A stretch of DNA of 64,000 nt, taken from NCBI GenBank assembly GCA_013388835.1, contig JACAEL010000026.1, positions 92,780-156,779 of the forward strand, read 5' to 3'. Positions 11,651 through 48,819 of this stretch are shown piece after piece (within the stretch, counting starts at the first letter, position 1; the number at the start of each line of letters is the position of its first letter). This DNA is from Candidatus Thorarchaeota archaeon. Its GTDB lineage: Archaea; Asgardarchaeota; Thorarchaeia; Thorarchaeales; Thorarchaeaceae. The notes beneath the pieces are model-generated. The model searched no databases. It was given only the letters and a program-made list of their open reading frames with translations, and was not told the origin of the DNA. The translations under genes and the position numbers were made by a program.

Positions 11651-11956
11651 TCTCTTTCTTGCTTGCACTCACTATCTCCTCAGAGTGCCATATTGAAGGC
11701 ACATTCACACGAGTCCTGATCAGTCTCGGGACATTCGTCTGAGATCATGTTGACGACCGCAGACGTTTCGTAACTCTGGCATGCCGACATGAGCAGTATG
11801 TGCTGCAGGTGGCAGTCACGCCTCCTCGGAGCCCCTTTACACGAATCATACATCGAAGTTTTCCTTATATGGATTGGCGGTAGCATCCTACTAGTAGACT
11901 TGAGCGCCACAGGTCTACCTGGTTATGTACGCTAAGTCACTGCACTGTACAAGACC

Positions 11957-20437: not shown

Positions 20438-20443
20438 CTGGGC

Positions 20444-22003: not shown

Positions 22004-22071
22004 GGGCTATCACATCTCTACCCGAGAATACGAATATAGACTTAGTGAGCTTCTTGAACGAGCTGCGTACA

Positions 22072-22719: not shown

Positions 22720-22734
22720 GTATGGTCTCCTCCT

Positions 22735-23397: not shown

Positions 23398-23805
23398 GTG
23401 TACGGTCTCCCGCTGGCATGGGGGCTTGGGGGGAGGTCGATGAGGGACCAGCCGTCGTGCCGTATATCGTTTGCTATTAGGCGACAGAGACAGCAGGCAT
23501 AGCCAAACCGGTCTGGGGATTCTTCAGGAGATGTCGACGCATCAGGATAGACTGGGTGCTCCTGCGTGAGGCGGTTGATGTGTGCAGTCTTGTGTGCTAG
23601 CAATCAATCCCGTCAAGGCGATGACTCGCGGCGTCCCCTGTGCCATACAGCGAGCGGCAGACTGACATCCCGACTCTGCAACGAGCGGCGCATTGTAGAC
23701 ACGGGCTCATGGTGGAAACGCGTTTTGCCACAACTGGGAACAAGAAAGAGGGGTATGCAGAGGATTGTGCCCCTGCATACATATTCCTAGACTAACAGCG
23801 TAGGT

Positions 23806-26338: not shown

Positions 26339-27394
26339 ATGAAGTTGCGTGATTTCATAATCAGGAGGATTCTCCTCGCCATTCCAGTGATTTTTGGAGT
26401 GGTCACAATCACATGGTTCCTGGCTTACATCGTCGGTGATCCGGTTGCGATGTTCGTCACTGAGAGAACACCTGACTCTGCCGTGCCCGGAATACGGCTC
26501 AGGTACGGGCTTGATGAGCCATTGTATGTTCAGTACTTCATATACCTCCGGAACTTGCTTCAAGGTGACTGGGGTCGAAGCTACAGCGAGGCTCAAGACG
26601 CGCCCGTCTTGACCGTGATTGCACAGAAGTTCCCTGCGACCATTGAACTTGCGATGATTGCCATGGTATTCGCAGTGATTCTCGGCATCCCACTGGGAAT
26701 TCTCTCTGCCACCAAGAAGGACAGACCGGTAGACCATGTGACGAGAGTGTTCTCGCTTGCTGGCGTTTCCATGCCCATCTTCTGGTTTGGGCTGATGCTC
26801 AAGTACGTGTTCTTCTACCAGTTCTGCATCAGCGGACTACCATATCTACCCGGAGACTCGCGGTTTGATCCAAATGTGTGGAGAGTTATGCTCGGGAACA
26901 ATGAGGGGTATGTACCTATCACGAATTTCCTGCTGCTGGACTCCCTTCTCTATCTATCCCCGGCGTGCTTCGTTGACGCGCTCAGGCACTTGATTCTTCC
27001 CGGATTCTGTTTGGGTTACTTGACACTGGCCATAATAACAAGGATGATGCGATCCAGTATGCTTGAGGTCCTCAAGGAGGACTACATCACACTCGCCCGG
27101 TCCAAGGGGCTGAAGGAGCGGACGGTCATCTACAAGCATGCTCTGAGGAATGCTCTCATTCCTACAGTCACGGTAGTTGGTCTTGCATTCGGTGGCCTCA
27201 TGTCAGGAGCTGTGCTAACCGAAACGATTTACAGCTGGCCCGGACTTGGTCGCTGGGCGACTAGGGCCATACTCCAGTCGGATCTCGCCGCCATCAACGG
27301 GTTCACTCTGCTTGTCGCTTTCATATTCGTGACAGCCAATCTACTCGTTGACCTGCTCTATGGAACACTGGACCCACGAATCAGGTTCGGATAG
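26339..27394 (+). CDS. ABC transporter permease, OppB/DppB-like.
   Basis: MKLRDFIIRRILLAIPVIFGVVTITWFLAYIVGDPV... is a BPD_transp_1 permease with the EAA-like loop (..RSKGLKERTVIYKHALRNALIPTVTV..). Stop TAG. Confidence 0.85.
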   Translation: MKLRDFIIRRILLAIPVIFGVVTITWFLAYIVGDPVAMFVTERTPDSAVPGIRLRYGLDEPLYVQYFIYLRNLLQGDWGRSYSEAQDAPVLTVIAQKFPATIELAMIAMVFAVILGIPLGILSATKKDRPVDHVTRVFSLAGVSMPIFWFGLMLKYVFFYQFCISGLPYLPGDSRFDPNVWRVMLGNNEGYVPITNFLLLDSLLYLSPACFVDALRHLILPGFCLGYLTLAIITRMMRSSMLEVLKEDYITLARSKGLKERTVIYKHALRNALIPTVTVVGLAFGGLMSGAVLTETIYSWPGLGRWATRAILQSDLAAINGFTLLVAFIFVTANLLVDLLYGTLDPRIRFG

Positions 27395-27398
27395 GAGG

Positions 27399-29123
27399 AT
27401 GAAAAACGTGAAGAATGACCAAGGTGCGACCTCTCATGTCTCTGAATATGGGTTATGGGGAAGACTCCTTCCGATACTGCAGACTGTGTTTGTCTTGACT
27501 GTCATTGCTTGTTCACTGATTTCGCTCGTGGGGCCCATAATCAGCTTCGTAATCTCTGTACTCGGATACACCATAGGCATTCCAGCAGTCTTGACTGGTT
27601 GGCCTCTGCAAGCATTCATTCTCATAATACTTGGCTTCATTGGCTTTGGCAACGCCAAGGCCATGTCTAGCTACGAGTCTTTTGCTTACTCCTCCACACT
27701 GCAGATGAACCTGCTGAGTGCAGCTGTTCTCATTACGATCGGTCCCTTGGGCTGGACACTGGCTCCAGTGTCCGTACTTCTGGTTGTCCCCATGTTTCAC
27801 AAGAACCTCAAGCCCCTCTGGTACGCAGAGTTCAGGGAGGACATGGGGCCCCGAATGAAAGAGCTGAGGTATAGCCTTCACCTGGTCCGCAAGAGCCCGC
27901 TTGTCGTCGTCGGTATTCTCATCATACTTGTGTTCGTGGGGATCGCAGTACTGGCTCCGTTCATTGCACCTTATGGCCCAGAGGAGCGAGTCTGGACGGA
28001 CCCCAAGGCTCCCCCCGGTGCAGTGTCTAATTCTCCCAAGTTCTCCCAGAGATACGTCGAGCGGATAAACAACACGGCTCCGCTGTACCTGCCGAACGAG
28101 ACCTACATTCAATTCACTGTGACACCTGAGGAAGTTCGACTCCTCGAAGAACTCCCGAATGTGTACATGTCTCTGTCCGTGCGTGGGACAAATGAAACAT
28201 ACTATGCGCAGATTTATGCTGCCGTATACGATGTTGGGCGGGCACAGCTCCTCTCCATGACCCCTGAGCAGAGAGCCCTCCATAGAATCGCCGAGAAGTA
28301 CGATACCAACACACTTAGAACAACAGTCACTCTCAAAGACGATTCCCGTGACTATACCTGGCACTACTGGTTGAACGTCAGTCATCCTGCGATGCCTTGG
28401 AACCTCACAGGTGCACTGGTATTGAGATACAACCACTACTATCCGATTCACATCTGGGGTGCCGACGAGAACGGTGGTGACATCTTCAGCAGGATTGTCT
28501 GGGCCGCGCAGGTCGACCTTAGACTATCCGTGACCATAGTCGTCGTGGCCGTAGTGATAGGTGCGATGATAGGAGCCGTCGCAGGATACTACGGTGGAAA
28601 GATAGACGAGCTGATGATGAGGGTCACGGACATATTCTTCGCATTTCCAGGCCTGATACTCGCGATGGCCATTGTGATGGCACTGGGACAACGAAACCTG
28701 GAGAACATATCTTTGGCTCTAATGGTGACATGGTGGCCCGTTTATGCAAGACTTGTGCGGGGGCAAGTGCTTACGGAGCGTGAGAAGCTCTACGTTGAGG
28801 CCGCGCGGTCGGTCGGAGCCAGCGATATGAGGATTCTGCTTGTTCACATCCTTCCTAACACATTCCAGCCTCTGATAGTGCAGGCCACCCTAGACACTGG
28901 TGGAGTACTGCTGACTGCTGCAGGCCTGTCATTCATAGGTTTTGGAGCACAGGCTGGAGTCGCTGAATGGGGGTTGATGATTTCCACAGGACAGCTGTAC
29001 CTCACTGAGGCTCCATGGATGTCCCTCTATCCGGGTCTTGCCATTCTCATGACTGCGCTCTCTTTCAATCTGGTAGGAGATGGAATAAGGGACATATTTG
29101 ATCCCAAGCTCAGACGGAGGTAG
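27399..29123 (+). CDS. ABC transporter permease, OppC/DppC-like, with an extra N-terminal membrane region and a large extracytoplasmic insertion.
   Basis: The C-terminal half matches OppC (…GADENGGDIFSRIVWAAQVDLRLS...IFFAFPGLILAMAIVMALGQ...ARSVGASDMRILLVHILPN...). AGGAGG precedes the ATG at ~27399, directly after the TAG of the upstream gene. The first ~150 aa add 3-4 TM helices. A ~170-aa sequon-bearing loop is inserted before the core. Confidence 0.8.
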   Translation: MKNVKNDQGATSHVSEYGLWGRLLPILQTVFVLTVIACSLISLVGPIISFVISVLGYTIGIPAVLTGWPLQAFILIILGFIGFGNAKAMSSYESFAYSSTLQMNLLSAAVLITIGPLGWTLAPVSVLLVVPMFHKNLKPLWYAEFREDMGPRMKELRYSLHLVRKSPLVVVGILIILVFVGIAVLAPFIAPYGPEERVWTDPKAPPGAVSNSPKFSQRYVERINNTAPLYLPNETYIQFTVTPEEVRLLEELPNVYMSLSVRGTNETYYAQIYAAVYDVGRAQLLSMTPEQRALHRIAEKYDTNTLRTTVTLKDDSRDYTWHYWLNVSHPAMPWNLTGALVLRYNHYYPIHIWGADENGGDIFSRIVWAAQVDLRLSVTIVVVAVVIGAMIGAVAGYYGGKIDELMMRVTDIFFAFPGLILAMAIVMALGQRNLENISLALMVTWWPVYARLVRGQVLTEREKLYVEAARSVGASDMRILLVHILPNTFQPLIVQATLDTGGVLLTAAGLSFIGFGAQAGVAEWGLMISTGQLYLTEAPWMSLYPGLAILMTALSFNLVGDGIRDIFDPKLRRR

Positions 29124-29129
29124 AGAGAG

Positions 29130-30374
29130 ATGACAATAGCACAGAGTGAACTTGCCCTGAAAGTGAAAGGACTTCGTATGAACTTCTACACGTACGAAGG
29201 TGTTGTGAAAGCGCTCGACGGAGTCGAGATACGCCTCAAACGTGGTGACACAATGGGCATCGTGGGAGAGACTGGCTGTGGCAAGTCTGTCACTGCCAAG
29301 TGTATCCTTCGTCTGATAGAGCCGCCCGGACGAATAGAGGGCGGCCAGGTCCTGATATACGACACCGACCCTCAGACCGGAAAGGTTGTGGAACGAGACA
29401 TTCTGAAGCTGACAACCGAGGAGATGCTCGATATCAGGGGCAACCGCATCAGTATCGTCTTTCAGGACCCTGCCACCTACCCGAACCCGGTCTTCCGTGT
29501 AGGCGACCAGATAGCAGAGGTTGTCCTTCTGCACCAAGATCTTCGGAGAGATGCACTTCAGCTGAAGATTGACGAGCTGCGAGGAATGCTGTCTGCAGCA
29601 GAAGGCGATGCAACACAGGTTGGTGAGCACAAAGACTCATGCGAGTCAGGGGAACCCGTGAGAGCAAGGAGCCTGTCTCCAGAGAAGATGGCGAAGATAC
29701 GAGAGCAGATTGCCAAATACGAGTCGATGCTTGAGAATCCTCCAAAGCCTGACAAGAAGTACGCCAAGAAGGCGGCCATGCGTCGAGCAATAGAGATGCT
29801 GCGGATGGTTAAGATGCCCTCTCCCGACAGGGTAGCAATGCAGTATCCCCACGAGCTCTCCGGAGGTATGCGCCAGAGAGCGCTAATCGCCATGGCCTTG
29901 GCGAGCAACCCCTTACTCTTGATCTGTGACGAGGCTACGACGGCACTGGATGTGACTGTCCAAGCTCAGGTCCTCAATCTGCTTAACGAACTCAAGAAAG
30001 AGATTGGCAGCTCAATCATGATAATCACGCATGACCTCGGTGTCGTGGCGGAGACGTGCAACTCGGTCACTGTGATGTATGCGGGCAACACAGTCGAGAG
30101 TGCCTCTACGAAGGAGCTGTTCGAGAATCCTGTACATCCATACACAATTGGGCTGCTCCAGGCAATACCCAAGCTCCATGAGAACAAGGAGCGGTTGGAC
30201 CAGATTCTGGGCACGGTGCCCAATCTAATCAACCCTCCTTCAGGCTGCAGATTTCACCCTCGGTGTGAATATGCCACAGCAGAGTGCTCCGGGGTCAAAC
30301 CGGAACTGAAGGAGGTGCGCCCCGGTCACTGGGTCGCGTGCTACCATCCTCAAGGCAGAGTCGGAGGCGAATGA
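29130..30374 (+). CDS. oppD: ABC transporter ATP-binding protein, OppD/DppD-type, with a helical insertion.
   Basis: Walker A GETGCGKS, signature [15 protein letters not shown], Walker [13 protein letters not shown], and the C-terminal oligopeptide-ATPase domain (GCRFHPRC). A ~70-aa charged insertion (…[13 protein letters not shown]...[13 protein letters not shown]…) precedes the signature motif. Confidence 0.9.
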
Positions 30375-30375
30375 G

Positions 30376-31407
30376 ATGACAGAAGCACTTGTGAAGGTCA
30401 TAGGCCTTAAGAAGTACTTCCCGCTGACTGGCGGCGTCTTCAGAAAGGTCGTAGGCAAAGTACACGCGGTTGATGATGTGAGCTTCGAAGTATACAGGGG
30501 AGAGACCCTTGGGGTTGTTGGTGAGAGTGGTTGCGGCAAGACGACACTGGGCCGAACCATCCTTCGTCTGATCAATCCCACGGCCGGACAGATCATCTTC
30601 GACGGCCAGGACATCTCACGCCTCTCAGCAAGGGCGATGAGAGAACTGCGCGGTCAGATGCAGATAGTCTTCCAAGATCCCATGGCATCACTGGACCCGC
30701 GAGTCACCATCAAGAACTCTGTTGGAGAACCTCTTGTTGTCAATGGCGTTGCGCGTGGCCCAAAGATGCGTGAAATGGTACTCTCGTTGCTCGAAAAGGT
30801 CGGTCTCACAGAGGATCACCTGAACCGGTTCCCGCACGAGTTCTCTGGCGGACAGAGACAGCGCATTTGCATTGCCAGGGCCCTCGCTCTGAACCCCAAG
30901 TTCGTGGTCATGGATGAGCCCACCTCGAGCACTGATGTTTCAGTCCAGGCGCAGACACTGAATCTAATGAAGGACCTTCAACATGAATTCAAGCTCACAT
31001 ACATGTTCATCTCCCACAATCTCAGTGTTGTCAAGCACATGAGCGACAGGATTGCAGTCATGTACCTTGGTAAGATAGTTGAGCTCACACCGCATGACAT
31101 CTTCAGGAAGACCCTGCATCCCTACACGTTCGCTCTGGTGTCAGCAGTACCTGTGCCGGACCCGAAGTTTGCCGGGAGAGCACAGATCCTTCCGGGAGAG
31201 GTCCCCAGCCCCATCAATCCACCTGTGGGATGCAGATTCAATCCACGTTGCATATTCGCACAGGAGATATGCAGAACGCAGGAACCGGAGCTTAGAGACA
31301 TGGGTGATGGGCATCTGGTCGCTTGCCATTTCGCGGGTGAGCTTGACTTTGGCAAGAGCTCCCAGATGGAGTATGCTCAGGCCGACACTGCGGCGCAAGG
31401 GTTGTGA
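30376..31407 (+). CDS. oppF: ABC transporter ATP-binding protein, OppF/DppF-type.
   Basis: Walker [10 protein letters not shown], signature [15 protein letters not shown], Walker [13 protein letters not shown]-terminal GCRFNPRC. Its start overlaps the oppD stop (ATGAGATG). Confidence 0.9.
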
Positions 31408-31687
31408 CAGCTCGCCCGGGAGAGCGCCCAGAGAAGCCTCAGTACCTCAGGAGGTCAAAGACCCCGTGAGAGAGAATGAAGACGGTGACCACACCATAGA
31501 AGAGCGTACTGATTGGGATGAGTATGTGCACATCCCGGAAAACAGGCAGGAGAGCGTGAGCCTTGAGCTGAAGGACTATGTCGCGCTGTTCATAGCAGCA
31601 CTGCAGACAGTCTTCCTGCCGCTGGTCATTCTCTCCGTACTTCTCGTCGCAGCCGCTCTGGCCTTCACATTTCTCTGGTGAACCATC

Positions 31688-32038
31688 ATGCCTATCGACT
31701 GGGAACGGTACAGGTCTGTCATGGAGCCAATGGCAGTGGCCTCTGCCATCTCTGTCTTTGACCTACTCCTAGCACTGGTTGTCTTTCTCTTCGACCCCAC
31801 GAGGAACGTGTATTTCATTGCCTCAGATGCGCTCTTCCTGGAGTTCGGCGTAATGCTGGTTCTAGGGGCTTGTTTCATGTCTAGGGAACCAATCTCCGAG
31901 GCGGCCCGGCAGAAGGCGGATGGGACTCCTACGACGTCATGGCGTCTCTCACAGTTGGGCAAGAAGATACTGTATTCGACGGTCTTTGTCTTCCTCTTTG
32001 GCCTGTTGTTTGTAATTGTCGGCTATGCACTGAAATGA
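31688..32038 (+). CDS. Small hypothetical membrane protein (116 aa).
   Basis: Two to three hydrophobic helices (AVASAISVFDLLLALVVFLF; LFLEFGVMLVLGACFM; STVFVFLFGLLFVIVGYAL) on the same strand as the opp genes, downstream of them. Confidence 0.45.
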   Translation: MPIDWERYRSVMEPMAVASAISVFDLLLALVVFLFDPTRNVYFIASDALFLEFGVMLVLGACFMSREPISEAARQKADGTPTTSWRLSQLGKKILYSTVFVFLFGLLFVIVGYALK

Positions 32039-32824
32039 CTACCATCGCATTCCTGACGCCATCTCTTCCTCTTCCGACCGCCCTCCACTGAAGCGAGTCC
32101 AGACTGCCCGGGGTATGATGTAGAAGGCAAGCACTATCACCAGACCAATGTACACCATGGCAAGTGCCAGACTCCAGCCTGCGAGTGTTAACGCGGGGTA
32201 CAGGACGAGATACACTATCAGAGTGGAGATGCAGTGCGCTACCAGTGTTGGCACTTCTTGAGCCCAGGGCGCCAACAGGATGAACGTGATGCCAATGATG
32301 GCGGACCTTGCAGTCCACTGACGGACGGAATCCACTGCAATCTTGAAGTAGAGATAGTCATGCGCACACAAGCTCCTCCAGTCTGCTTTGCCCAAGTCCT
32401 CAAGGTACTTCTCGGAAATGCGGGGCCCGGAAGGTCCCAGTATTACCAGAAAGGTCATGGCGAAGACCGCCACTGCTCCACCAAAGAGCGCGATGGACTC
32501 TACTAACAACAACGTGAGAATGACTGCTGCACTGCTCATGACCAGTGCAATCACAAGGAAAGCGGCTAGCGTACGAGTGTTCAGAATGTCCTCAAAGAAG
32601 AGTCTCAGGTGGGTAGGTCTGTCAGAACTGATGTTCTCCATGGCCCACTTGTGAGAGTAGCACTCAGAGGGAACACCCTGCGCTGATGGGTCGAGGGATG
32701 AGACATCATAGTACTGGCGAATCCTGTCTCCGTGCTTCTCCAGTTGTACTAGTCCTCGTCCTCTGATTGCCGTTCGCACCAAGACTAGTACACCGCTGAC
32801 AATGAACGCAACACCGAGGTCCAA
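32039..32824 (-). CDS. Hypothetical polytopic membrane protein (261 aa).
   Basis: Several predicted TM helices (LAAFLVIALVMSSAAVILTLLLV; AVAVFAMTFLVILGPSG; IIGITFILLAPWA; LIVYLVLYPALTLAGWSLALAMVYIGLVIVLAFYII). No recognisable family. Confidence 0.5.
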   Translation of the reverse strand: MDLGVAFIVSGVLVLVRTAIRGRGLVQLEKHGDRIRQYYDVSSLDPSAQGVPSECYSHKWAMENISSDRPTHLRLFFEDILNTRTLAAFLVIALVMSSAAVILTLLLVESIALFGGAVAVFAMTFLVILGPSGPRISEKYLEDLGKADWRSLCAHDYLYFKIAVDSVRQWTARSAIIGITFILLAPWAQEVPTLVAHCISTLIVYLVLYPALTLAGWSLALAMVYIGLVIVLAFYIIPRAVWTRFSGGRSEEEEMASGMRW

Positions 32825-32842
32825 CTCTCAGCATCTCCAGCT

Positions 32843-33754
32843 CTACAGTGAATACCTCTCCCGTACCAGTCCTTCCAGTACGATGAGCCACATGCATCCA
32901 AGCAGTTCTCTTGAGGAGTCACCGCCTGTCTGCGCAGGCAATCCCAGAAGCAACACGACGTCCCCTCTGAGGGCGTTCTCAGCGTACTGCCCAGTCTTGA
33001 GTCTGAAGAGGCTTCCGTCTCCACTGATAGAAAGCCCCAGATCATGAAACGTCCTTGGACTATCACAGTACCTGTAGTCGAAGTCACGACTGAGGTCCGG
33101 CAGAATCTGGGTGTCTGGTCCAGATACTCGTATCCGAAGCCTGAACTGGCGCAAGACATAGTGAGCGACCAAGTCCTTCCGACCAGTTCCAGCCGGTATC
33201 AGAATGGGCCTGCCCTCCGGCCTCTCGACCAGACGCGCCTCGACAAGACCGGAGAAGTCACCACATTCACCTGTGAACACAACCTCATCATGGCGGTCGA
33301 TGTCTACAGCGAGATCCCCTATGACTTCTCTCTTCACTCCCTCAGGGTTGTCCTTGGTCTCGGCGCCAGGTTCCCAGTGAAACCACGGGACGGTCAGCAT
33401 CGGGAGCATCTTGTCCGGGTATGACCGCTTCCGCTCCATGATCTTCTGCGTGGCTGGATTCGTCACAAACAGAGCAAGTGAGAGAGGACGAACGCTTCTC
33501 AGATGTTCCTTGAGGAACTGAACCGCAGCTCCTCTGTCCGGGCACAGCGACCTTGTCGCTTCCACAAGCTGAGCAATGGTCAGCTGAACCTGTCCTGCGG
33601 TGTCTATCTCCTGTTGCTGCGAGTAGTTCAGGGCGAAGCTGACTCCAAGTCGCTCTGACACAGCGTCAAGAGATCTGGAATCCAATCTGACTCGGGCTGC
33701 CACACTCGAATCGTCTGTGAGTCTAGCATAATCCTTCCGGTCTGCGCCACCCAA
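32843..33754 (-). CDS. Hypothetical protein (303 aa), family not recognised.
   Basis: Long ORF with soluble-protein-like composition and no motif I can assign. Confidence 0.4.
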   Translation of the reverse strand: MGGADRKDYARLTDDSSVAARVRLDSRSLDAVSERLGVSFALNYSQQQEIDTAGQVQLTIAQLVEATRSLCPDRGAAVQFLKEHLRSVRPLSLALFVTNPATQKIMERKRSYPDKMLPMLTVPWFHWEPGAETKDNPEGVKREVIGDLAVDIDRHDEVVFTGECGDFSGLVEARLVERPEGRPILIPAGTGRKDLVAHYVLRQFRLRIRVSGPDTQILPDLSRDFDYRYCDSPRTFHDLGLSISGDGSLFRLKTGQYAENALRGDVVLLLGLPAQTGGDSSRELLGCMWLIVLEGLVRERYSL

Positions 33755-33799
33755 TGGATATCTTGAATACCGCTACGAGTCTGGCAATCCCGAGCCGAT

Positions 33800-34657
33800 T
33801 TGACAGACGAAGCCAGTCACACACGCAGCAGCCATATCGACAGATGGCTGAGAGTCTTTAACGGAGGCCAGAGGAACAGTGGCGACACTCAGCCATTGAT
33901 TCAACAGGACTTGGTGCGACTCGTAAGAGACCGTGTTGTGGACTTCGACGCGCTTCATCTCTCAACCAGAAGACGGACCCCCGTTGCTGCTTGCAGACTG
34001 AGCGTTTCACCCGTTCGAGGGTCGATGGCTCTTGCAGACCTAGCATACCTTCCCGGGGAGCGCGAATCCGCGGAGTCGTTGATGGAAGTCGGTCTTGCAA
34101 AGGCGAGGGAACAAGGTCTCTCAGAACTGGTGATGTGGGTCAGCGAGAAGGCAACAGCAATCGCTGACATGACTGCGTGCTTCTGCTTTGAAGCGAGAAA
34201 AATACGGGCTAGGTATGTCAGAACACTGGCCGCCGAAGGAGAACCACCGACAGGTGAGCAGTCGTGCCGCACGGAGCCTGCAACAGGCCCTGGCCGCCTC
34301 TCTCAACTCCTTCTTGGGGGCGTCCCCAGTCTTACAGACCTCGTCTCTGAGTGGAAGAGCCCGTTCACAGTCGCTGTCAAGGACACAGATGTCTCCGTGA
34401 GCGTCTACGAGTCCGAGGACTCTAGGAGAGAGTGCTGGATTCACTTTCATAGCAAGAATCCGACAGACTGCAGAATGAGCATCTCCGTATCCACCCTCGA
34501 AGCCGTATTGGCTCTGCTGTACAGAAGAGGGGTCCGAAATGTCAACACCGAGGTGTGTCTTGATCATCACTTGAATGACTCACTCTCGCAAGCGGGATTC
34601 GAGCTCGTTACAACATACTATGAGATGGTGATGTCGTTACAACAGGCCGAGGACTAG
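33800..34657 (+). CDS. Putative GNAT-family N-acetyltransferase, possibly a tandem GNAT fold.
   Basis: …LMEVGLAKAREQGLSELVMWVSEKATAIADMTACFCFEARKIRARYVRTL… resembles the GNAT acetyl-CoA-binding core. Two overlapping - strand ORFs exist, and the call rests on motif resemblance only. Confidence 0.4.
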   Translation: MTDEASHTRSSHIDRWLRVFNGGQRNSGDTQPLIQQDLVRLVRDRVVDFDALHLSTRRRTPVAACRLSVSPVRGSMALADLAYLPGERESAESLMEVGLAKAREQGLSELVMWVSEKATAIADMTACFCFEARKIRARYVRTLAAEGEPPTGEQSCRTEPATGPGRLSQLLLGGVPSLTDLVSEWKSPFTVAVKDTDVSVSVYESEDSRRECWIHFHSKNPTDCRMSISVSTLEAVLALLYRRGVRNVNTEVCLDHHLNDSLSQAGFELVTTYYEMVMSLQQAED

Positions 34658-38719: not shown

Positions 38720-39994
38720 ATGTCTGATTCTTCCGCTCGACTGCTCCCAGTCTACGTACCATACCTGCTCCAGTCAATGGCGCAGGCCATAAGCTGGCAG
38801 TTCGTTACGTACTTCGTCAAGCACGACCTCGGCGTCGAGTCCTTCCTGCTTCTCACCGTAGTGTGGGCGGTTCCTGCGCTGGTCACAACGGTTGCCGTGA
38901 ACGTGTGGGGGGCGGTTTCCGACCGGATTGGGAGGAAGAAACCATTCATGCTGGTCGGTTTCATCGGATATGCTTCCACATTCCTGTTGTACTCTCAGGT
39001 CACGGACGCTGTCCAGTATCTTGTCGTCGCCTGCTTCGGAGCGCTGATGGGCTCTGCCTCAGTGCCGGTCGGTCAAGCATACGTGACGACAGGGACAGAA
39101 AAGCGGGGTGAACGCCTTGGGTACTTGCTTGTCGTGCAGTCCGCCGGATGGTCCGTCGGAGCATTGTCCAGTGGTGTCTTGTATGACGTGGTCGGAATGC
39201 GCGTCCTCTACGTTGTGGCTGCCTCTCTGGCCATCGTAGCCACGGTGAGCTGTGGGCTGTTCGTCATGGACATGCGTATCCATGTGACCTCGACGGAAGA
39301 GCGTGTCAGGTTCTCAGTAGTGATGAGACGGCCGGGGATGGCCAGACTGACTCTTGCGGCCTCTCTCAGCGCTATCGGGAACAATGCCATTGCCTGCATG
39401 CTGATGATCATGGTTGTCGATGAGCTGGGCGGCACAGAGGGCATGGTTGGCCTTGCCAATGCGCTGGCGACTCTGCTTGCCGTCGTGTTTACAGGTTTCG
39501 TTGGTAAGCTCACCGACCGCAAAGGCCCTGTCAAGGTGCTCGTGATAGCTTACTCATCGTATGTCTGCTTCGCCACGGCATTTGCACTTGCGACGGACCC
39601 GTGGGTGGTCACTGCGCTCTATGCATTGCCAATCTACCCGTTGGCGTCCACCGCCGCATTCGCCTATGCAGCAAGGGTCTCGAAGGAGTCTGAGCGGAGT
39701 ACATCAATGGGACTAGTCAATGGAGCGCAGAACGCAGGGGCGGCACTGGGGCCCATTATCGGTGGTTTGTCTGCAGAGTTCGTCTTCCTTCGTGTGCAGC
39801 CAATCTCGTGGCTGAACATGCTGTTCAACCTGCTTGCACTCCTCTTCGCTCTCTCTCTGTTGAGAGTCTGGGCCGGTCTTCACGCGCAGGACAGGGCCAC
39901 TGACACGCACTCCGTCAGGAGCCCCATCGAGAAGGTGTCAGGCCTAGTCGAGGGGAATGTCTCGTCCGTTGATGAACACACGGACGGGCTTTGA
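38720..39994 (+). CDS. MFS (major facilitator superfamily) transporter.
   Basis: Twelve-helix hydrophobic profile, MFS loop-2/3 motif GAVSDRIGRKKPFMLVGF, and two repeated 6-TM halves. Confidence 0.8.
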   Translation: MSDSSARLLPVYVPYLLQSMAQAISWQFVTYFVKHDLGVESFLLLTVVWAVPALVTTVAVNVWGAVSDRIGRKKPFMLVGFIGYASTFLLYSQVTDAVQYLVVACFGALMGSASVPVGQAYVTTGTEKRGERLGYLLVVQSAGWSVGALSSGVLYDVVGMRVLYVVAASLAIVATVSCGLFVMDMRIHVTSTEERVRFSVVMRRPGMARLTLAASLSAIGNNAIACMLMIMVVDELGGTEGMVGLANALATLLAVVFTGFVGKLTDRKGPVKVLVIAYSSYVCFATAFALATDPWVVTALYALPIYPLASTAAFAYAARVSKESERSTSMGLVNGAQNAGAALGPIIGGLSAEFVFLRVQPISWLNMLFNLLALLFALSLLRVWAGLHAQDRATDTHSVRSPIEKVSGLVEGNVSSVDEHTDGL

Positions 39995-41002
39995 GTAGAA
40001 GTCAAACGGGTCCCCGGACCAGAGGACTATGTCCGCATCCTTTCCAGGCTGAAGAGAACCAACTCTGTCTTGAAGTCCGAGAATCTCCGCCGGGTTGATC
40101 GTCACACACCTCAGTGCCTCTTCATAGCTGAGCCCGTGTTTGATTGCATACATGGGCAAGAGCTGGAAGTGAAGCATCGGAGTGAGCGAGTCGGTCTGCA
40201 GTGCTACCTTGACGCCTGCACGCACCAGCTTGACCGCGGTCTCAAAAGAACGTTCTCTGGTCTCGGGCTTGCTGACCCAGTACATTGTTGGACCTACAAC
40301 TGCTGGAAAGCCTGACTTCGCTATGAAGTCCGCAATCTTGTGCCCCTCTGTGCAGTGGATGAGTACCAGTCGCAGGTGGAACTCATTGGCAACACGAATC
40401 ACTGTGGCAATGTCGTCTGCACGATGTGCGTGCGCATGAAGCGGTATCTCCCTCTTGAGGACCTTGGCGATGGTCTCCAGGCCCAGATTCCGCTTCGGTG
40501 GATTTGGCGGGGTCTCGCCCTTCTCTCTCGCCTCTCTCGCCCTGTCCCCGTACAGTGTCCACTCGTTCAGATAGTCCTGGCCTTCGGTGAGAGTCCTCCT
40601 GAGCAGAGCTGCGACTCCCATCCGGGTTGAAGGTGTGCGCTTCTCGGTGCCATGCACCCTCTTGGGGTTCTCGCCCAGCGCGACCTTCAGCGCAGAGGGA
40701 GCAAGGACGAGCATCTCATCGACGACGCCACTCGGTATGGGCTTGATCACGAACGACTGGCCGCCAATTACATTGCCTGACCCGGGTCCAGTGTTGATGC
40801 ACGTCACCCCTCCCCGGACCACTTCCTTTAGCGACGGTTCGAACGGGTAGAAGGAGTCGATGCCTCGCATGTCCGGCGTGATGGGGGTGGTCATCTCATT
40901 CCCGTCCTCTCCCGCCCAGCCGATAGAGCCATCGAACAGTCCCTGGTGTGTGTGGGCGTCAATGAATCCCGGAGCGACGAACATCCCCTTCCCGTCAATC
41001 AC
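39944..41002 (-). CDS. Amidohydrolase-family metal-dependent hydrolase. Start uncertain: the conserved N-terminus continues upstream to ~41128 without a canonical start codon.
   Basis: PGFIDAHTH(Q) HxH motif, plus the downstream ..HAHA.. and ..DS... metal-ligand regions. The ORF-track start is the GTG at 41002. The upstream in-frame translation IKAIVNATVVCPVRGRITGGTIVFDERIVAVGESTKPPPEAEVIDGKGMFVAPGFID is a typical amidohydrolase N-terminal beta-sandwich, yet contains no ATG/GTG/TTG. The only candidate is an ATT at ~41126-41128, preceded by GGAG. Confidence 0.7.
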   Translation of the reverse strand: MIDGKGMFVAPGFIDAHTHQGLFDGSIGWAGEDGNEMTTPITPDMRGIDSFYPFEPSLKEVVRGGVTCINTGPGSGNVIGGQSFVIKPIPSGVVDEMLVLAPSALKVALGENPKRVHGTEKRTPSTRMGVAALLRRTLTEGQDYLNEWTLYGDRAREAREKGETPPNPPKRNLGLETIAKVLKREIPLHAHAHRADDIATVIRVANEFHLRLVLIHCTEGHKIADFIAKSGFPAVVGPTMYWVSKPETRERSFETAVKLVRAGVKVALQTDSLTPMLHFQLLPMYAIKHGLSYEEALRCVTINPAEILGLQDRVGSLQPGKDADIVLWSGDPFDFYSKPVRVFINGRDIPLD

Positions 41003-41292
41003 TTCGGCTTCTGGTGGCGGCTTGGTACTCTCCCCGACCGCAACAATGCGTTCGTCGAATACTATGGTGCCTCCCGTGATTCTGCCTCTTACAGGGCAGA
41101 CGACTGTCGCATTGACAATGGCTTTAATTCCTCTGTCTCCCTGTGACCAGGGTCTGCCCTAGGAGAAAAGGATTGCGCACAGCATACCGAATCGCTTGAA
41201 TTGGCTGCACATGCCGTCCTAGACTGAGCTGAATGGGAGCGCAGTGTCATCACCACGTGGTCCGACGCTCCGGCTGTTGTCACTGTCATCGA

Positions 41293-42294
41293 CTACATTT
41301 TCTTGGCAATGATGGAGACCAAGTCTGCAAGTCTCTGCGAGTAACCTGCTTCGTTGTCGTACCAAGCCATGACCTTTGCCATGTTGCCAACCACGAAGGT
41401 AGAGAGCGAATCGTAGATGCAAGAGTGAGTATTGCCTATGAAGTCCGAGGAGACGAGTTCCTCGTCAATGTACTGCACAATTCCCTTCATCTTTCCGTCG
41501 GCAGCCCTCTTGAAGGCGTCGTTAACGCTCTGCACCGTGACCTCCTTCTCGAGGTCCACCACTAGGTCCACAAGGGACACGTCCATTACCGGAACGCGGA
41601 TAGCAAGTCCGTCCAGTTTGCCCTTCGCCTTCGGATAGACAAGACCTATCGCCTTTGCTGCTCCCGTCGTCGTGGGCACGATGTTCCAGCATGCAGCCCT
41701 AGCTCTCCTCAGGTCACTGTGCTGCATGTCAAGTATCCGCTGGTCGTTGGTGACAGCGTGTATCGTGGTCATGAGACCGCGCTGGATACCGAATGCCTAA
41801 TCCATTATCTTGACCATAGGAGCCAAGCAGTTTGTCGTGCAAGAGGCGTTGGAGATCATGTGATGCTCTGCAGGTCGGTAGTCGGCATCATTGACACCAA
41901 TGACGACCGTAAACATCTCCCCCTTTGCAGGAGCGCTGAGAACCACCTTCTTTGCCCCAGCAGTGAGGTGCTTCTTGCAGTCCTCGGCCCCACGAAAGAC
42001 CCCCGTCGACTCCACCACTATGTCAACGCCCAAGTCCTTCCACGGCAGCTTTGTGGCATCGCGTTCCATCAGTGCCTTGATCTTCCTTCCGTCAACGACA
42101 ATCTCCCCGGCACCATGAGTCACCGAGCCGTTGAATGTGCCCATCACCGTGTCATACTTGAAGAGGTGGGCCAGTGTCTTTGCATCAGCAAGGTCGTTGA
42201 GTGCAACGACCTCGTACTCCTTCTTTCCAAGCGCAGATCGAAGGAAAAGACGGCCTATTCGACCGAACCCGTTGATTGCCACTCTAACAGTCAT
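41293..42294 (-). pseudogene. gap: Bacterial-type (class I) glyceraldehyde-3-phosphate dehydrogenase gapA, interrupted by a single in-frame TAG at ~41797-41799.
   Basis: The N-terminal half VAINGFGRIGR...SNASCTTNCLAPMVKIMD ends in TAG (TGA is not used here). The same frame then continues AFGIQRGLMTTIHAVTNDQ...RRARAAC.NIVPTTTGAAKAIGLV...WYDNEAGYS. The TAG aligns with a variable D/E/K residue of the conserved KV(I)ND-x-FGI linker. No frameshift and no other lesion is present. Confidence 0.75.
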
Positions 42295-42661
42295 TTGTCA
42301 CTCCACCGAGGCCTCAAGAGACCTGAGGGAGTCGCCGTCAGCTCGGCTATATATCTTCCGAAATCCCGACTCCCTTAGACAGCCGAACGACTCCAGACGA
42401 TAGTGCAGTGTTGGCGATTGGTGAGGTGACTTGCGACTCTCAGTCCGAGGAAGTGACTAGATAGGGCAGTGGTTCGCCAAACTGATGCTCAGGACAGAAC
42501 GAGCCCATGACGGGTGAGTGAGAGTGGCGACAATCAATGTGGGCGAACAGACGGACCCGGTCACTGTCTGGCACGCCCGCAGGCTGCCAGGGGGGATTCG
42601 TCATGGTGCCCTTGGTGGTCGATGCACATTTGTGAACTGTTATTAATGAGGGAGCAGAGAG

Positions 42662-42841
42662 ATGACGAGTGACTCGGGAGGTCACAATATGGGTGATCAT
42701 AGCAACCACATGTGCGACTACTCAAAGCATCACAGCGTCGAAGAGATGAGAGTCCGGGTGAAGGACCCGAAGTGGATCTGTGAGGTCTGCGGACGGACTG
42801 CAAACAACAAAGAGTACCTCTGCAGGCCCGTAGCGCTGTGA
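42662..42841 (+). CDS. Candidate small Cys/His-rich protein (59 aa), below the ORF-track length cutoff.
   Basis: GAGGGA precedes the ATG. Translation is MTSDSGGHNMGDHSNHMCDYSKHHSVEEMRVRVKDPKWICEVCGRTANNKEYLCRPVAL*. It has four Cys including a CxxC, and a His-rich N-terminus. The overlapping antisense ORFs are R/S-rich and look non-coding. Confidence 0.3.
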   Translation: MTSDSGGHNMGDHSNHMCDYSKHHSVEEMRVRVKDPKWICEVCGRTANNKEYLCRPVAL

Positions 42842-42923: not shown

Positions 42924-44525
42924 TCATGGCAGTGGCGGGGTGATTATGCAGTCCTTCTCCCACTCCACCTCAAAGCCATATTCCACTTGGAGTTCCTTTC
43001 CAGGGTCTATTGTGGCTTCCCACTCGAGTACTCCCATCTCGAACTTCTTCTCCGGAAGCGAAGGGGGTGGTTGCAGAGTGACTGTTATCTTCTCGGAGCC
43101 ACTGTAAGGAATCCTATCAACAATGCGAATCTCAGCAGGGTTCTTCGAGAAGTTCTTCAGTTCAAGCCTGTACTTGTAGGCCCGCTTCTTCTTCCCCTTG
43201 GTGATGCCCGCCTTCTCGGTGTCCTTCAGAGCCAGCTTCTTCTCCGCCTTGATGTCATATGCAGTCCGGGTCCCGATTCTGATCTTCTCACGCGGGGCCA
43301 CGAGATTGATGTGGGTCTCGCCGATGAAGTCACCGTTTGCATAGACCCTCACCTTCCCTGGGAGCATCACCGAGTCGCCGTTTGTCACCTCGTCCTGAGC
43401 TACCACTTCCGACATCGCATAGGCGTTCCAGTAGTATAACACCCTTGACACGAAGGTCTCCTCGGTCAGAGTCACTGGATGAGGCTCCCTTCCGGACTCG
43501 ATAGTCACACGACCTGGGACCGCGTAGATGACTGTGCCACCCAGTGATTCGGAGACCGCGGCGAATGACTCCTCGATTTCCGTGGCACTCGTTTCCTGCT
43601 CTTCAGCACGCTCGTACTCGTATGCACCAGCCTCTTCCTTTGCTCCCGACTGAGGCTCCGCCATCCTCTTTCGGTCTCTAAGGGCAAAGGCCTTTGGTAG
43701 CTGTCGCGCCGCCCTCAGCACGTCCACATAGAGTGGTTGGGCCTTCACTGCCTCTACTCGTGTTGCCGAGGCAGTAGACACAGTGAGGGACACATCGTCC
43801 CAGTCCTCGAGCGTGTTGTTCCAGACTGTCGCGATTCTCTTCACACGCGAGGACTTCTCAGACGTGTCAATGTCGTACATTGGTGTCCATCCTGACTGTC
43901 CCAGCTGGTATGTGACCTCAAGCTCGAGGTCCGTCGCACTGCTCGCATTCACTGTGATACTAACATCGGTCAGAGTCTCTGTGCGCCTCTCTCCTTGGAC
44001 TCGGTTCAGGTTCTGCTCGGTCGCCTGAATCGCAGAGGTGACCTCTCTCAACTCCCTCGACAGGTCTCTCAGTCTCTTCTTTGCGTCACGTAGTATCGCC
44101 GTTGTCGCCTTGTCCATCTCAGACAGGTTGTCCATCTTAGACTCTCCAGCAGCATACCATTTGCCGAACTCGGAGGAGAACTGGAGTGACATTGAAGATG
44201 CCCTCTTGACACGTGCTTGCTGTTGCGCGATTGCGTCGTTGATGTCATCTCTTCTGCGCTGCAGTTTGAGGAGTTGGTCTCGCAGCGTCTTGAGTTCTCC
44301 CTCTGGTTCATATGTCCTACTCACATGTTTGACGTCAATACCACGCAGGACTGCATTGCCCTTGCCCTTCACTCTGAACGAGTTCTCTTCAGCATATGCG
44401 CTGATGCCCGAGACCATCAGAATCTGCTCGCCCTCTACTAGCTTTGCCTTTCCCCTCCTTGTGATCCTAGCACCGTCTCTGAAGACCGTGACCTCAGATA
44501 TTCTTGTCTCAATGTTCTGTGTCAA
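42924..44525 (-). CDS. DUF4140/DUF4139-family protein (MuiA-like conserved hypothetical), paralog 1 (533 aa).
   Basis: The N-terminal block ISEVTVFRDGARITRRGKAKLVEGEQILMVSGISAYAEENSFRVKG matches DUF4140. A central coiled coil follows. The C-terminal blocks LEVTYQLGQSGWTPMYDID...EDWDDVSLTVSTASA and VIYAVPGRVTIESGREPHPVTL...GKVRVYANGDFIGETHINLVAPREK match DUF4139. Confidence 0.7.
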   Translation of the reverse strand: MTQNIETRISEVTVFRDGARITRRGKAKLVEGEQILMVSGISAYAEENSFRVKGKGNAVLRGIDVKHVSRTYEPEGELKTLRDQLLKLQRRRDDINDAIAQQQARVKRASSMSLQFSSEFGKWYAAGESKMDNLSEMDKATTAILRDAKKRLRDLSRELREVTSAIQATEQNLNRVQGERRTETLTDVSITVNASSATDLELEVTYQLGQSGWTPMYDIDTSEKSSRVKRIATVWNNTLEDWDDVSLTVSTASATRVEAVKAQPLYVDVLRAARQLPKAFALRDRKRMAEPQSGAKEEAGAYEYERAEEQETSATEIEESFAAVSESLGGTVIYAVPGRVTIESGREPHPVTLTEETFVSRVLYYWNAYAMSEVVAQDEVTNGDSVMLPGKVRVYANGDFIGETHINLVAPREKIRIGTRTAYDIKAEKKLALKDTEKAGITKGKKKRAYKYRLELKNFSKNPAEIRIVDRIPYSGSEKITVTLQPPPSLPEKKFEMGVLEWEATIDPGKELQVEYGFEVEWEKDCIITPPLP

Positions 44526-44539
44526 TACTCACTCATCTC

Positions 44540-46135
44540 CTATACCAGCGGCGGACTGACTGTCACGCCCTTCTCCCAGAATACCTCGTAGCTGTACTCG
44601 ATTGTCTCCTTCTTTCCGATGTCGATGGTCTTCTTCCACTGCATGACTCCAAGTTCATACTTCTCAAGACCTAGCCTCTCCCAGTCGACCTTCACTTCAA
44701 TTGCCGGGTTCAAGCTGTGCGGGACCCGGTCAAAGACTTCTATCTCTATGGGCCGCTTGGAGAAGTTCTCCAGTTCGAGTCGGTAGGTGTAAGACCTTCT
44801 CAGCTTGCCTCGTGTTATCCCCGTCTTCTCAACCTCTCTCGACACCATCTTCTTCTTCGCCTTCACGTCATATGCGAGTCGAGTGCCCATCTTGAACTCC
44901 TCGCGTGGCGATACGAGGGGCATCAAGGACTCTCCGATGTAGTCCCCCTCGGCATACACTTTCACCTTGCCGGGAAGGATCACGCTATCGTTGTTTGTCA
45001 CTAGGTCCTGTGCCACGACCTCGGACATCCCGTCTGCATACCAGTAATGTATGGTCTTGGTGGCTAGCTCCTCCTCTACGAGCGTCACCGGATGGCGGTC
45101 ATCGTCACACGGTATGGTGACAGGCTTCGGGAGCTCGTATACTGACACTCCCGATGCGGCCTCCGATACCTCCGCGAACTCCTCTAGCATCGGCGGCGCG
45201 GGCGGTGGTCGGGCTGCTTCGACTTTGAGTGACGGAGCTGCTATCGGCATGGTCTCCCCTGGCATGGAGGGTGGCATGCCGCCGCCGGTCATGCTCCGAC
45301 TTGGACGTGGAGGTGGAGGAGAGTAGACGTCGATTATGAGTGGAGTGGGCTCGACTGCCTCTACAGGCTGTGCTGTCGCGGATGAGACAACCAGCCCCAC
45401 TCGCTCCCACGGTTCCATCGTCTGGTTGGTCACCATGGCCACCCGTCGTATCTTTGCCTTTGTTGGAAGGAGGTCCACGTCATAGGTAGGAATCCATCCT
45501 GCCTCGTCGCACTGGTACGACACTTCGAGCTCAACTTCGGCTCTCTGAGAGACCTCCAGATTCACCTCGACGTTGTAGGAGACCTTCGTTCGTCTCTGGT
45601 ACTCGTCACGACCAAGGTTCTGTCGTACTACATTCATCTGGTCCTCCAACTCACGCATCTCTCTCTCAATGTCTCTGAGCTTTGACCTTGTCTCCGCAAT
45701 CATCTTCCCCGAGGTCTTGTCCATCTCTGTCAGAGCGGTGATGTCCCCCTCGTTCGCGGCAAACACCATGCCAAAGGTGCCTGCAAACTCGTTGTTCATC
45801 GCTTCGAGTTGGCTCAGTCTGGCTGTGTGGAGTTCGTGGTCGTCCTTGAGCTGCTGATACTGGTCTTGGAGACGCTCGAGTTGGTCCCGGAGTGCCTGAA
45901 TGTCCCCTACGGGTTCATAGACTTCGGTGTGGCGCTTGACATCAATACTTGAGAGTGATGCAGGTCCTCGTCCCTTCACCCTGAAGCTGTCCTCATGTGC
46001 ATACTCGGTTATCCCCATGATCAGTACCTTCTGAGGTCCCGCTTCAAGGGTCCGTTTGCCTACGCGCGTCACGCGGGCTCCATCCCTGAAGACAGTGACA
46101 CGCTTGATCTTCGTTTCCATTTCAGTCAAAGGCAA
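44540..46135 (-). CDS. DUF4140/DUF4139-family protein, paralog 2 (531 aa), with a Pro/Gly-rich linker.
   Basis: Collinear with paralog 1 (KRVTVFRDGARVTRVGKRTLEAG...FRVKGRG; LEVSYQCDEAGWIPTYDVD...EPWERVGLVVSSATA; GKVKVYAEGDYIGESLMPLVSPREE). It lies 14 nt upstream of paralog 1 on the same strand. Confidence 0.7.
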   Translation of the reverse strand: MPLTEMETKIKRVTVFRDGARVTRVGKRTLEAGPQKVLIMGITEYAHEDSFRVKGRGPASLSSIDVKRHTEVYEPVGDIQALRDQLERLQDQYQQLKDDHELHTARLSQLEAMNNEFAGTFGMVFAANEGDITALTEMDKTSGKMIAETRSKLRDIEREMRELEDQMNVVRQNLGRDEYQRRTKVSYNVEVNLEVSQRAEVELEVSYQCDEAGWIPTYDVDLLPTKAKIRRVAMVTNQTMEPWERVGLVVSSATAQPVEAVEPTPLIIDVYSPPPPRPSRSMTGGGMPPSMPGETMPIAAPSLKVEAARPPPAPPMLEEFAEVSEAASGVSVYELPKPVTIPCDDDRHPVTLVEEELATKTIHYWYADGMSEVVAQDLVTNNDSVILPGKVKVYAEGDYIGESLMPLVSPREEFKMGTRLAYDVKAKKKMVSREVEKTGITRGKLRRSYTYRLELENFSKRPIEIEVFDRVPHSLNPAIEVKVDWERLGLEKYELGVMQWKKTIDIGKKETIEYSYEVFWEKGVTVSPPLV

Positions 46136-46996: not shown

Positions 46997-47274
46997 GCCC
47001 TTGATTGTGCCGGAAAAGTGCCTTTCATCATAAGTATGATATCCATTAGTATATCCTTTATGCTCTATATCGCTCTTACAGGACGGAATATACCCAGATT
47101 GTGTATTAAATCGTATTCCATTGCATTATGGACGTCAGTGGATATATGAGTGTGTAATGTGGCGATGCAAATCCCATAAGTGCGCTCGTGCCTAAGTCAT
47201 TGACAGGCTGCGGACACAACGGAGCAGATCTCAAGGCACACCTGAAGTATCACGAGCTAAGGAGCAACTCGCAC
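46997..47274 (+). promoter_or_regulatory. AT-rich intergenic region upstream of the GH3 gene, with TATA-like elements (candidate archaeal promoter).
   Basis: Local AT content is much higher than the window average (…TATATCCTTTATGCTCTATATCGC…TGTATTAAATCG…GGATATATGAG…). AAGGAG lies 12 nt before the ATG at 47275. Confidence 0.3.
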
Positions 47275-48819
47275 ATGACGATGCTAAAACGACTGGTCAA
47301 GATGGTTGCCGAGAAGAAGGCACACGCTATCGACAAGATGCTCGAGCATCAACAGGAAGTGATGGAGTCAAAGCTGACGTCCATACTCCGAAGGCACCAT
47401 GACACAGTCTATGGAAGAAAGTATGGGTTCGAATCTATCAGAACCGCCGAGCAGTATGCTGAGCGGGTTCCACTGGTTGACGCTGAGAAGCTCAGGCCCT
47501 ATTTCGGAATGACTTATGTGGACCCGAAGGGGGGAATACTCACCAAGGACCCTGTGATATGGTACCTGCAGACCTCCGGGACAACAGGACACCCGAAGCG
47601 AGTACCCATAACCCGCCCCGGTCTGAAGGACTCGTCCAGAGGCTCTGCCATGACATGGATGTCATTCATAAACGCGGAGGAGGAGAACGCAGACATCCTG
47701 GACGGGACACTTGTGACTTTCGGTGCTGCATCAGTGCTCGATTGGGTGAACGGAATACCGGTGGGTTATGCGACGGGTGTCTATGCTCGCCACCAGAACC
47801 GGCTATTCCAGAGGCTCATCAAGCCGGGTGAGGACATCTTCAACATAACTGACATGGACACAAAGATGAGGGCCTATGCTCGGATTCTTGCGACCGAGAA
47901 CGTGACAGGACTTCAGGGTATCACGACGCTTTCGCTATCTCTGATCAGACGGATGCAGGACCAGTATGGACCTTGGCTTGCAGAAGAGCTCAGCAATTCC
48001 GAAGGCAGGAACAGGATTCTAGCATCTCTTGACGATGAGGGTCGACTTGATGTCAGTCAGCTCTGGCCTAATCTGAGGCTCTTTCTGGCCAGCGGAATCG
48101 ACACCACTCCCTACAAGGTCTGGATGACGAAGACCTTTCCCAACCTGAGCGTTGTCGAGATTTATGGTGCATCAGAGGGTGTCTTTGCTGGTCAGCTTCT
48201 GGAACCCCAAGAAGGGATGCAGCTGTTTGCAAACACGCACTACTTCGAGTTCATTCGAGAGAATGACGCCAACGAACCCAACCCTGCTGTGATTCCTCTC
48301 TCCGAGGTCAAGGTCGGAAGCAGGTATGAGATTGTCCTAACTAACATTCAGGGCTACTACAGATATCGCTTGGGGGACGTAATGACCTTCACGTCCACTG
48401 ATCCCTATTCTGTGAGCCGGATATCAAGAAGGGGAAAGGTGGTGAACCTGTCAGGTGAGAAGGTGTCTGATGCGCATGCGTCGATTGCGATGAGTGAGGC
48501 CTGTCGGAGGACGGGTGCACAGGTGGTTGACTACACCCTGTTAGGAGTGATAGAGAATGGGATTGGCCACTACACAATCGCTGCGCTGTTCCGAGACGAC
48601 TCAGTAGACTCCATAGAGTTTGTCCAGACCTTTGAGGAGTCCATGATGAGCATAAACCCAGAGTTCAGGGTGGTGAGAGAGGTTGGTGCACTGGGCCCAA
48701 CCGTGCTGAAGAGGCTTAAGGTACCGTACTTCGATGAGGTTGTCAAGCAGAGCCACCTGCAGGCAAAGCCTCATTGTCTGACGACCAGCAAGGACGTACT
48801 CTCGCTATGCGAGTCGTGA
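47275..48819 (+). CDS. GH3-family adenylate-forming enzyme (GH3 auxin-responsive-promoter superfamily, PF03321-like acyl-acid amido synthetase).
   Basis: YLQTSGTTGHPKRVPIT matches the GH3 SSGTSxGxxKxxP adenylation motif. YGASEG matches the GH3 Y-x-S-SE motif. Length and C-terminal domain fit the GH3 family. The start at MTMLKRLVKM is preceded by AAGGAG; the ORF track extends it to 47188. Stop TGA. Confidence 0.7.
   Translation: MTMLKRLVKMVAEKKAHAIDKMLEHQQEVMESKLTSILRRHHDTVYGRKYGFESIRTAEQYAERVPLVDAEKLRPYFGMTYVDPKGGILTKDPVIWYLQTSGTTGHPKRVPITRPGLKDSSRGSAMTWMSFINAEEENADILDGTLVTFGAASVLDWVNGIPVGYATGVYARHQNRLFQRLIKPGEDIFNITDMDTKMRAYARILATENVTGLQGITTLSLSLIRRMQDQYGPWLAEELSNSEGRNRILASLDDEGRLDVSQLWPNLRLFLASGIDTTPYKVWMTKTFPNLSVVEIYGASEGVFAGQLLEPQEGMQLFANTHYFEFIRENDANEPNPAVIPLSEVKVGSRYEIVLTNIQGYYRYRLGDVMTFTSTDPYSVSRISRRGKVVNLSGEKVSDAHASIAMSEACRRTGAQVVDYTLLGVIENGIGHYTIAALFRDDSVDSIEFVQTFEESMMSINPEFRVVREVGALGPTVLKRLKVPYFDEVVKQSHLQAKPHCLTTSKDVLSLCES

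Follow-up and report, generated by a model that had tools for sequence, protein, structure and literature searches.

The window analysed here, a stretch of 64,000 nucleotides of Thorarchaeota DNA, carries a type I GAPDH gene that is interrupted once, at codon 166, by an in-frame TAG. The gene is read on the minus strand from 42294 to 41293, where a single frame runs through 165 sense codons, the TAG, another 167 sense codons and a closing TAG, and the break is a real discontinuity rather than a chance pattern of open reading frames. The explanation tentatively preferred, at slightly less than an even chance, is a very recent and real nonsense allele. The features of the locus and of the gene that follows it are listed below.

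41293..42294, minus strand: complete reading frame of the type I GAPDH (333 codons, interrupted once by TAG; terminal TAG)
41800..42294, minus strand: N-terminal 165 codons, with the NAD-binding domain and the catalytic-Cys motif SNASCTTNC (Pfam Gp_dh_N, PF00044, E = 8.9e-39)
41797..41799, minus strand (plus strand CTA): internal TAG at codon 166 (probable ancestral state GAG, Glu)
41293..41796, minus strand: C-terminal 167 codons and terminal stop, with the catalytic domain including His179 (Pfam Gp_dh_C, PF02800, E = 1.5e-60)
42301-42307, minus strand: putative Shine-Dalgarno-like GGTGGAG, read from the sequence 7-13 nt upstream of the GAPDH ATG
42348-42354, minus strand: putative TATA-like ATATATA, read from the sequence ~57 nt upstream of the GAPDH ATG
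39944..41128, minus strand: amidohydrolase gene directly downstream of GAPDH, with an ATT (41126-41128) at the position of the orthologues' start codon

The Gp_dh_C match of the C-terminal half spans profile positions 11-158 of 158 and, together with Gp_dh_N, gives the locus the two-domain architecture of the enzyme with both the catalytic Cys and the catalytic His. When the halves are joined and the TAG is replaced by E, the protein passes the NCBIfam type I model TIGR01534 (437.1 bits, cutoff 367.2) and fails the type II archaeal model NF003251/PRK04207 (24 bits, cutoff 185), in agreement with the class I, bacterial-type GAPDH named in the initial annotation. C152 and H179 fall in invariant columns when the protein is aligned with 19 close homologues, and the SNASCTTNC motif is itself invariant. 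The best database homologues, annotated as type I GAPDHs from Candidatus Thorarchaeota or Promethearchaeota, are 333-336 aa long and align from end to end with up to 76% identity. The coordinates, the common frame of the two halves and their full GAPDH quality, all noted earlier, are borne out by the translation, by Gp_dh_N and Gp_dh_C and by TIGR01534; the peptide reported around the break, LAPMVKIMD*AFGIQRGLMTTIHA, is exact. As sequenced, the locus does not offer an uninterrupted frame for a single polypeptide of ~333 aa, the TAG falling at codon 166. Judged from these comparisons, it belongs by descent to the Asgard type I GAPDH family, but in its present form the full enzyme is not encoded. 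In the 630-bp spacer that precedes GAPDH lies a 59-aa ORF with a CxxC motif (42662-42841, plus strand), possibly a zinc ribbon, that has no Pfam match and whose exact sequence is absent from the protein collection searched.

The genes of this region stand in the order: two MuiA/DUF4140-DUF4139 genes, GAPDH, amidohydrolase, MFS transporter and OppD/F-type ATPases. The same order recurs, wholly or largely, in ~10 Thorarchaeota contigs of other genomes or metagenomes, and also at locus L161. This conserved Thorarchaeota synteny marks the GAPDH as the vertically inherited gene of the clade. Liu et al. (bioRxiv 10.1101/2020.10.19.343400) report that in most Asgard genomes the archaeal type II enzyme has given way to type I GAPDH. 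Both observations speak against the 'horizontally acquired, dispensable' copy proposed in the initial annotation: on gene order and family membership, the gene is not an extra copy that was acquired horizontally and could be dispensed with. Type I GAPDH is the usual enzyme of Asgard archaea, and this gene should not be read as a spare one.

Several neighbours deserve a short description. The tandem pair upstream of GAPDH (42924-46129, minus strand) consists of two ~530-aa paralogues with DUF4140 and DUF4139 domains, annotated by NCBI as 'mucoidy inhibitor MuiA family' (NWF95587, NWF95588); a MuiA-family tandem pair precedes GAPDH in ~10 examined Thorarchaeota loci. At 47158-48819 (plus strand) lies a GH3-family protein with the N-terminal, middle and C-terminal GH3 domains, a member of the family of plant auxin-amido synthetases in an Asgard archaeon. 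At 22072-23397 (minus strand), the genes for ribulose-phosphate 3-epimerase and fructose-6-phosphate aldolase/transaldolase adjoin in the same frame with a single TGA between them, and form a pair of non-oxidative pentose-phosphate genes near the GAPDH locus.

The internal stop has no counterpart among the relatives compared. Of 164 full-length GAPDH matches across 160 fetched loci, none contains an internal stop, and a TAG is kept at this site in 0 of 14 Thorarchaeota orthologues and 0 of the 164 homologous loci. On this sampling the TAG is private to this genome. Coding potential continues past the stop, although the stop itself is unique to this genome. At the corresponding codon, 13 of the 14 Thorarchaeota loci carry GAG or GAA and one carries CAA; the closest relative (locus L081) has GAG. 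In the protein alignment, the codon-166 column holds E in 16 of the 19 close homologues, with K, G and T once each, and the wider set of 164 homologues shows D (62), E (55), Q (38), K (4) and N (2) as well as H, R and G. The site is a variable polar position, 14 residues past the catalytic Cys. As the orthologues mostly have GAG or GAA at codon 166, the TAG is most simply a single G-to-T change from GAG; on the plus strand, this would be a C-to-A change at position 41799. This agrees with the earlier view, in which the residue lost to the TAG is acidic or polar and its codon is one substitution away.

Apart from the TAG, the gene is well preserved. It departs from the homologues at only one (P80A) of 114 columns that are invariant among the 19, within the range of 0-10 deviating columns obtained for intact homologues in the same test; at one further, nearly invariant column, F is conservatively replaced by Y. 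The putative Shine-Dalgarno-like and TATA-like signals also look intact. The premature stop of a nonsense pseudogene is thus present, without the further degenerative changes expected of one. This lack of other decay suggests that the lesion is either very recent or present only in the data.

Searches for other copies gave little. The exact 165-aa and 159-aa fragments of the GAPDH are absent from a collection of 15 billion proteins. By exact sequence, nine other genes of the window are present in it, all on one NCBI contig (accessions between NWF95567 and NWF95596). The absence of both halves beside the presence of nine contig neighbours would fit annotation of the gene as a pseudogene by the depositor. 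A 30-mer spanning the TAG, in which the mutated base was set to N, had 0 matches in metagenome contigs, and protein-guided scans of genome and metagenome contigs for a conspecific GAPDH returned nothing closer than 72-76% identity. The ten top GAPDH hits were considered as a possible second copy in the same MAG and set aside: no listed accession starts with NWF (most of these hits carry no accession), and hit P0002 sits on a contig of another assembly, GCA_053491595.1.

Stop codons were tallied for non-overlapping ORFs of at least 150 codons in the window and in 14 related Thorarchaeota loci (L001-L011, L016, L081, L082). TAG is the commonest terminator in the window, where it ends 18 of 33 long ORFs (TAA ends only 2), and the 130 long ORFs of the related loci end in TAG (61), TGA (40) or TAA (29). 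TAG is the rarest stop in most prokaryotes, and the preference for it here and in the related loci is unusual by comparison. Some of these TAG codons clearly mark genuine ends: an OppC-type permease finishes ...DPKLRRR-TAG directly before an ATPase gene, and a 1,946-aa surface protein ends with a C-terminal hydrophobic anchor followed by RRRK-TAG. Wholesale reassignment of TAG in the window is excluded, natural protein ends preceding what is here the commonest stop. These counts also uphold the earlier opinion that pyrrolysine recoding is unlikely.

A scan of the window for stops with at least 70 open codons on both sides identified no other real gene split in frame; the GAPDH TAG is the only stop in the window that divides one recognisable gene. 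The other same-frame pairs of long ORFs are neighbouring genes or off-frame ORFs. Four adjacent pairs proved to be separate neighbours: an amidohydrolase and MutL at 18677-22006, ribulose-phosphate epimerase and fructose-6-phosphate aldolase at 22072-23523, an Opp permease and ATPase at 27333-30374, and a pair of neighbouring genes in the same frame at 31079-32038. The latter region opens a run of five consecutive ORFs of 118-309 aa (31079-34657) without Pfam matches and almost unmatched in the syntenic loci of relatives; this block may be a lineage-specific or mobile insertion. The window also includes three giant ORFs, at 4367-11611 (plus strand, 2,414 aa), 11936-17776 (plus strand, 1,946 aa) and 57455-64000 (minus strand, >2,180 aa, continuing beyond the window edge). 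Their Pfam matches are few or weak (Big_1, Big_3_5, filamin-like and macroglobulin-like repeats, CBM_56), and they are probably surface or adhesion proteins.

Signals of recoding are absent from the sequences examined. No Rfam family reaches the gathering score in the GAPDH region or in the whole window, and at E <= 10 the GAPDH region yields a single irrelevant weak match on the opposite strand. The 120 nt from the TAG onward fold with -38.5 kcal/mol compared with -32.8 +/- 3.6 for shuffled sequences (z = -1.6), which is not significant (11 of 200 shuffles fold as well). No tRNA gene, with a CUA anticodon or otherwise, occurs in the window or in 15 related loci, which are small parts of their genomes, and no pyl or methylamine-methyltransferase gene was found among the window ORFs scanned against Pfam. 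Programmed read-through, one of the explanations offered in the initial annotation, thus finds no positive evidence: neither a conserved stop nor a stimulatory element downstream of it is present at the GAPDH locus. The marks of pyrrolysine recoding, a conserved stop and depletion of TAG, are likewise not seen, rarity of TAG as a terminator being typical but not universal for Pyl-using archaea.

A second anomaly lies next door. The amidohydrolase gene directly downstream of GAPDH starts in register with ATG, GTG or TTG in five of six orthologues, and the sixth (L011) has an ATG one codon upstream. In the five orthologues, a conserved GGAG-like motif precedes the start and K/I-A-I/L comes after it. 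The window has ATT at the codon in register, and the first ATG, GTG or TTG beyond it is a GTG that lies 52 residues inside the conserved protein. Derived from an ancestral ATG, the ATT would represent a G-to-T change on the coding strand, of the same class as the GAPDH TAG; both sites read T[C>A]A on the plus strand and they are 671 bp apart. Two changes of the same class at nearby critical codons make a damage-type artefact modestly likelier, although two events are too few for statistics. ATT is a permitted rare start codon, and here it may be a genuine initiator unrelated to the GAPDH TAG. Decay of the amidohydrolase was considered and rejected: 21 of 246 conserved columns deviate, as in the outgroup orthologue L002 (20 of 245).

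All that could be measured speaks for a single-base lesion outside any recoding programme, and the preferred scenario is a simple one. A single unprogrammed G-to-T change (GAG to TAG) would have struck codon 166 of the standard type I GAPDH of the lineage. TAG, an ordinary and indeed preferred stop here, would end translation after 165 residues, and the product, which would carry the NAD-binding domain and the catalytic Cys without the remainder of the catalytic domain, would leave the allele non-functional. On this view, the MAG consensus would have caught a nonsense allele or pseudogene of very recent origin, the base being truly present in the cellular DNA and the protein not rescued by read-through. 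Predicted pseudogenes are frequent in archaeal genomes and make up to 8.6% of CDS in S. solfataricus (PMC8211752). A real allele is favoured by the length of the contig (167,857 bp), which implies decent coverage, and by the intact state of the other genes examined. However, GAPDH is a core gene of the lineage, is free of decay and adjoins an anomaly of the same class, all of which favour an error or a minority allele. A fixed GAPDH knockout would moreover be costly in a peptide-fermenting archaeon that needs gluconeogenesis, which again speaks for an error, for a minority allele or for read-through as a rescue.

An error in sequencing or consensus, with GAG in the DNA and the gene intact and functional, is a serious but still doubtful alternative. 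It would require a C-to-A miscall on the plus strand, arising for instance from an oxidatively damaged template or a dip to low coverage. Changes of the G-to-T / C-to-A type form the classic 8-oxoG artefact class. In a gene that is otherwise perfect, core and syntenic, selection should purge a real knockout, and the second C-to-A in the same T[C>A]A context at the amidohydrolase start points in the same direction. However, consensus substitution errors are rare at the good coverage that usually goes with a contig of this length; complete domain matches were obtained for the other window genes scanned against Pfam, and no further stop or frameshift was noticed in them; and the amidohydrolase ATT may be a genuine rare start, two events being in any case statistically too few.

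Alternatively, the TAG may be real and leaky, a near-cognate tRNA or an orphan tRNA with a CUA anticodon inserting a residue often enough to provide sufficient active GAPDH. In the 164 homologues the site is occupied by D, E, Q, K, N, H, R or G, so almost any insertion should give an active enzyme, and a core gene without further decay is what such rescue would leave. This is nevertheless unlikely: the stop is unconserved in orthologues and has no stimulatory RNA structure, and TAG is the main stop of the lineage, so that efficient amber suppression would harm about half of the proteome. The +4 base is G, which also follows several genuine TAG terminators in the window and is not a leaky stop context in bacteria and eukaryotes. 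A 2021 review (PMC8211752) recognises read-through of stop codons in archaea for Sec and Pyl alone, which also weighs against a leaky TAG, as does the lack of a CUA-anticodon tRNA in the window and the 15 related loci, small as these are. In its favour, Sun et al. 2021 (PMC9723677) describe an orphan 'tRNAPyl' in some Thorarchaeia without pylSBCD and leave its role open. The more specific case, in which such a 'tRNAPyl-like' tRNA partly reads the TAG and the sole GAPDH is made from an amber-interrupted gene, is improbable; if true, it would represent natural amber suppression in Asgard archaea without Sec or Pyl.

Insertion of pyrrolysine itself is very improbable. Its sole support is the TAG codon together with the sister class Sifarchaeia, in which, according to Sun et al. 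2021 (PMC9723677), a Pyl system is paired with high TAG stop usage (21%). That study restricts the Asgard Pyl machinery to Sifarchaeia and reports Thorarchaeia without pylSBCD. In addition, the window has no pyl or methylamine-methyltransferase genes, about half of the ORFs end in TAG, no PYLIS-like element was found, and the site is an ordinary, non-catalytic surface Glu at which no orthologue has TAG. Finally, the two halves could be produced separately and assemble into an active enzyme, with restart at an ATG (41772, Met175) located 8 codons past the TAG, which opens the 159-aa ORF. This arrangement is scarcely credible. Residues 166-174 would be lost, the ATG is not preceded by a Shine-Dalgarno-like motif, the break lies inside the catalytic domain between Cys152 and His179, and none of the 164 homologous loci contains a split GAPDH.

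As it stands, the interruption is of little consequence, the gene appearing to be treated as a pseudogene already in the depositor's annotation. In metabolic reconstruction from this MAG, however, 'GAPDH absent' should not be scored on the TAG without reads. If the TAG were confirmed by reads and a full-length protein found, there would be evidence that amber codons are read through in a lineage whose main stop is TAG.

Comparison with known systems places the locus as follows. With the Asgard type I GAPDH (TIGR01534; asCOG cog.001204, Liu et al.) it shares the domains, the length of 333 aa, the SNASCTTNC...H179 signature and the neighbourhood. Annotated Thorarchaeota type I GAPDHs are 65-76% identical to it; they have Glu at codon 166 where this gene has TAG. 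The closest solved structure is that of the Geobacillus stearothermophilus GAPDH (PDB 1GD1), to which residues 3-332 align with E = 9e-126. There, the TAG position corresponds to the Glu of KVLHEQFGI, which follows the catalytic Cys by 14 residues; 1GD1, which comes from a bacterium and has an uninterrupted ORF, serves only as a structural reference. The Pyl-recoded genes mtmB, mtbB and mttB of Methanosarcina, Methanomassiliicoccales and Sifarchaeia likewise have an in-frame UAG in an otherwise intact gene. However, in those genes the UAG is conserved in orthologues, lies in the active site and is accompanied by pylTSBCD in the genome, whereas the GAPDH UAG occurs in one genome, at a variable surface position and in a class reported to lack pylSBCD. 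Closest are ordinary nonsense pseudogenes and 'internal stop' genes, which also differ from intact orthologues by a single premature stop; the category that suits the locus best is that of an ordinary MAG gene with an 'internal stop'. It differs from ordinary nonsense pseudogenes in that it shows no additional decay and concerns a core metabolic gene, and for these reasons the lesion must be either very recent or an artefact.
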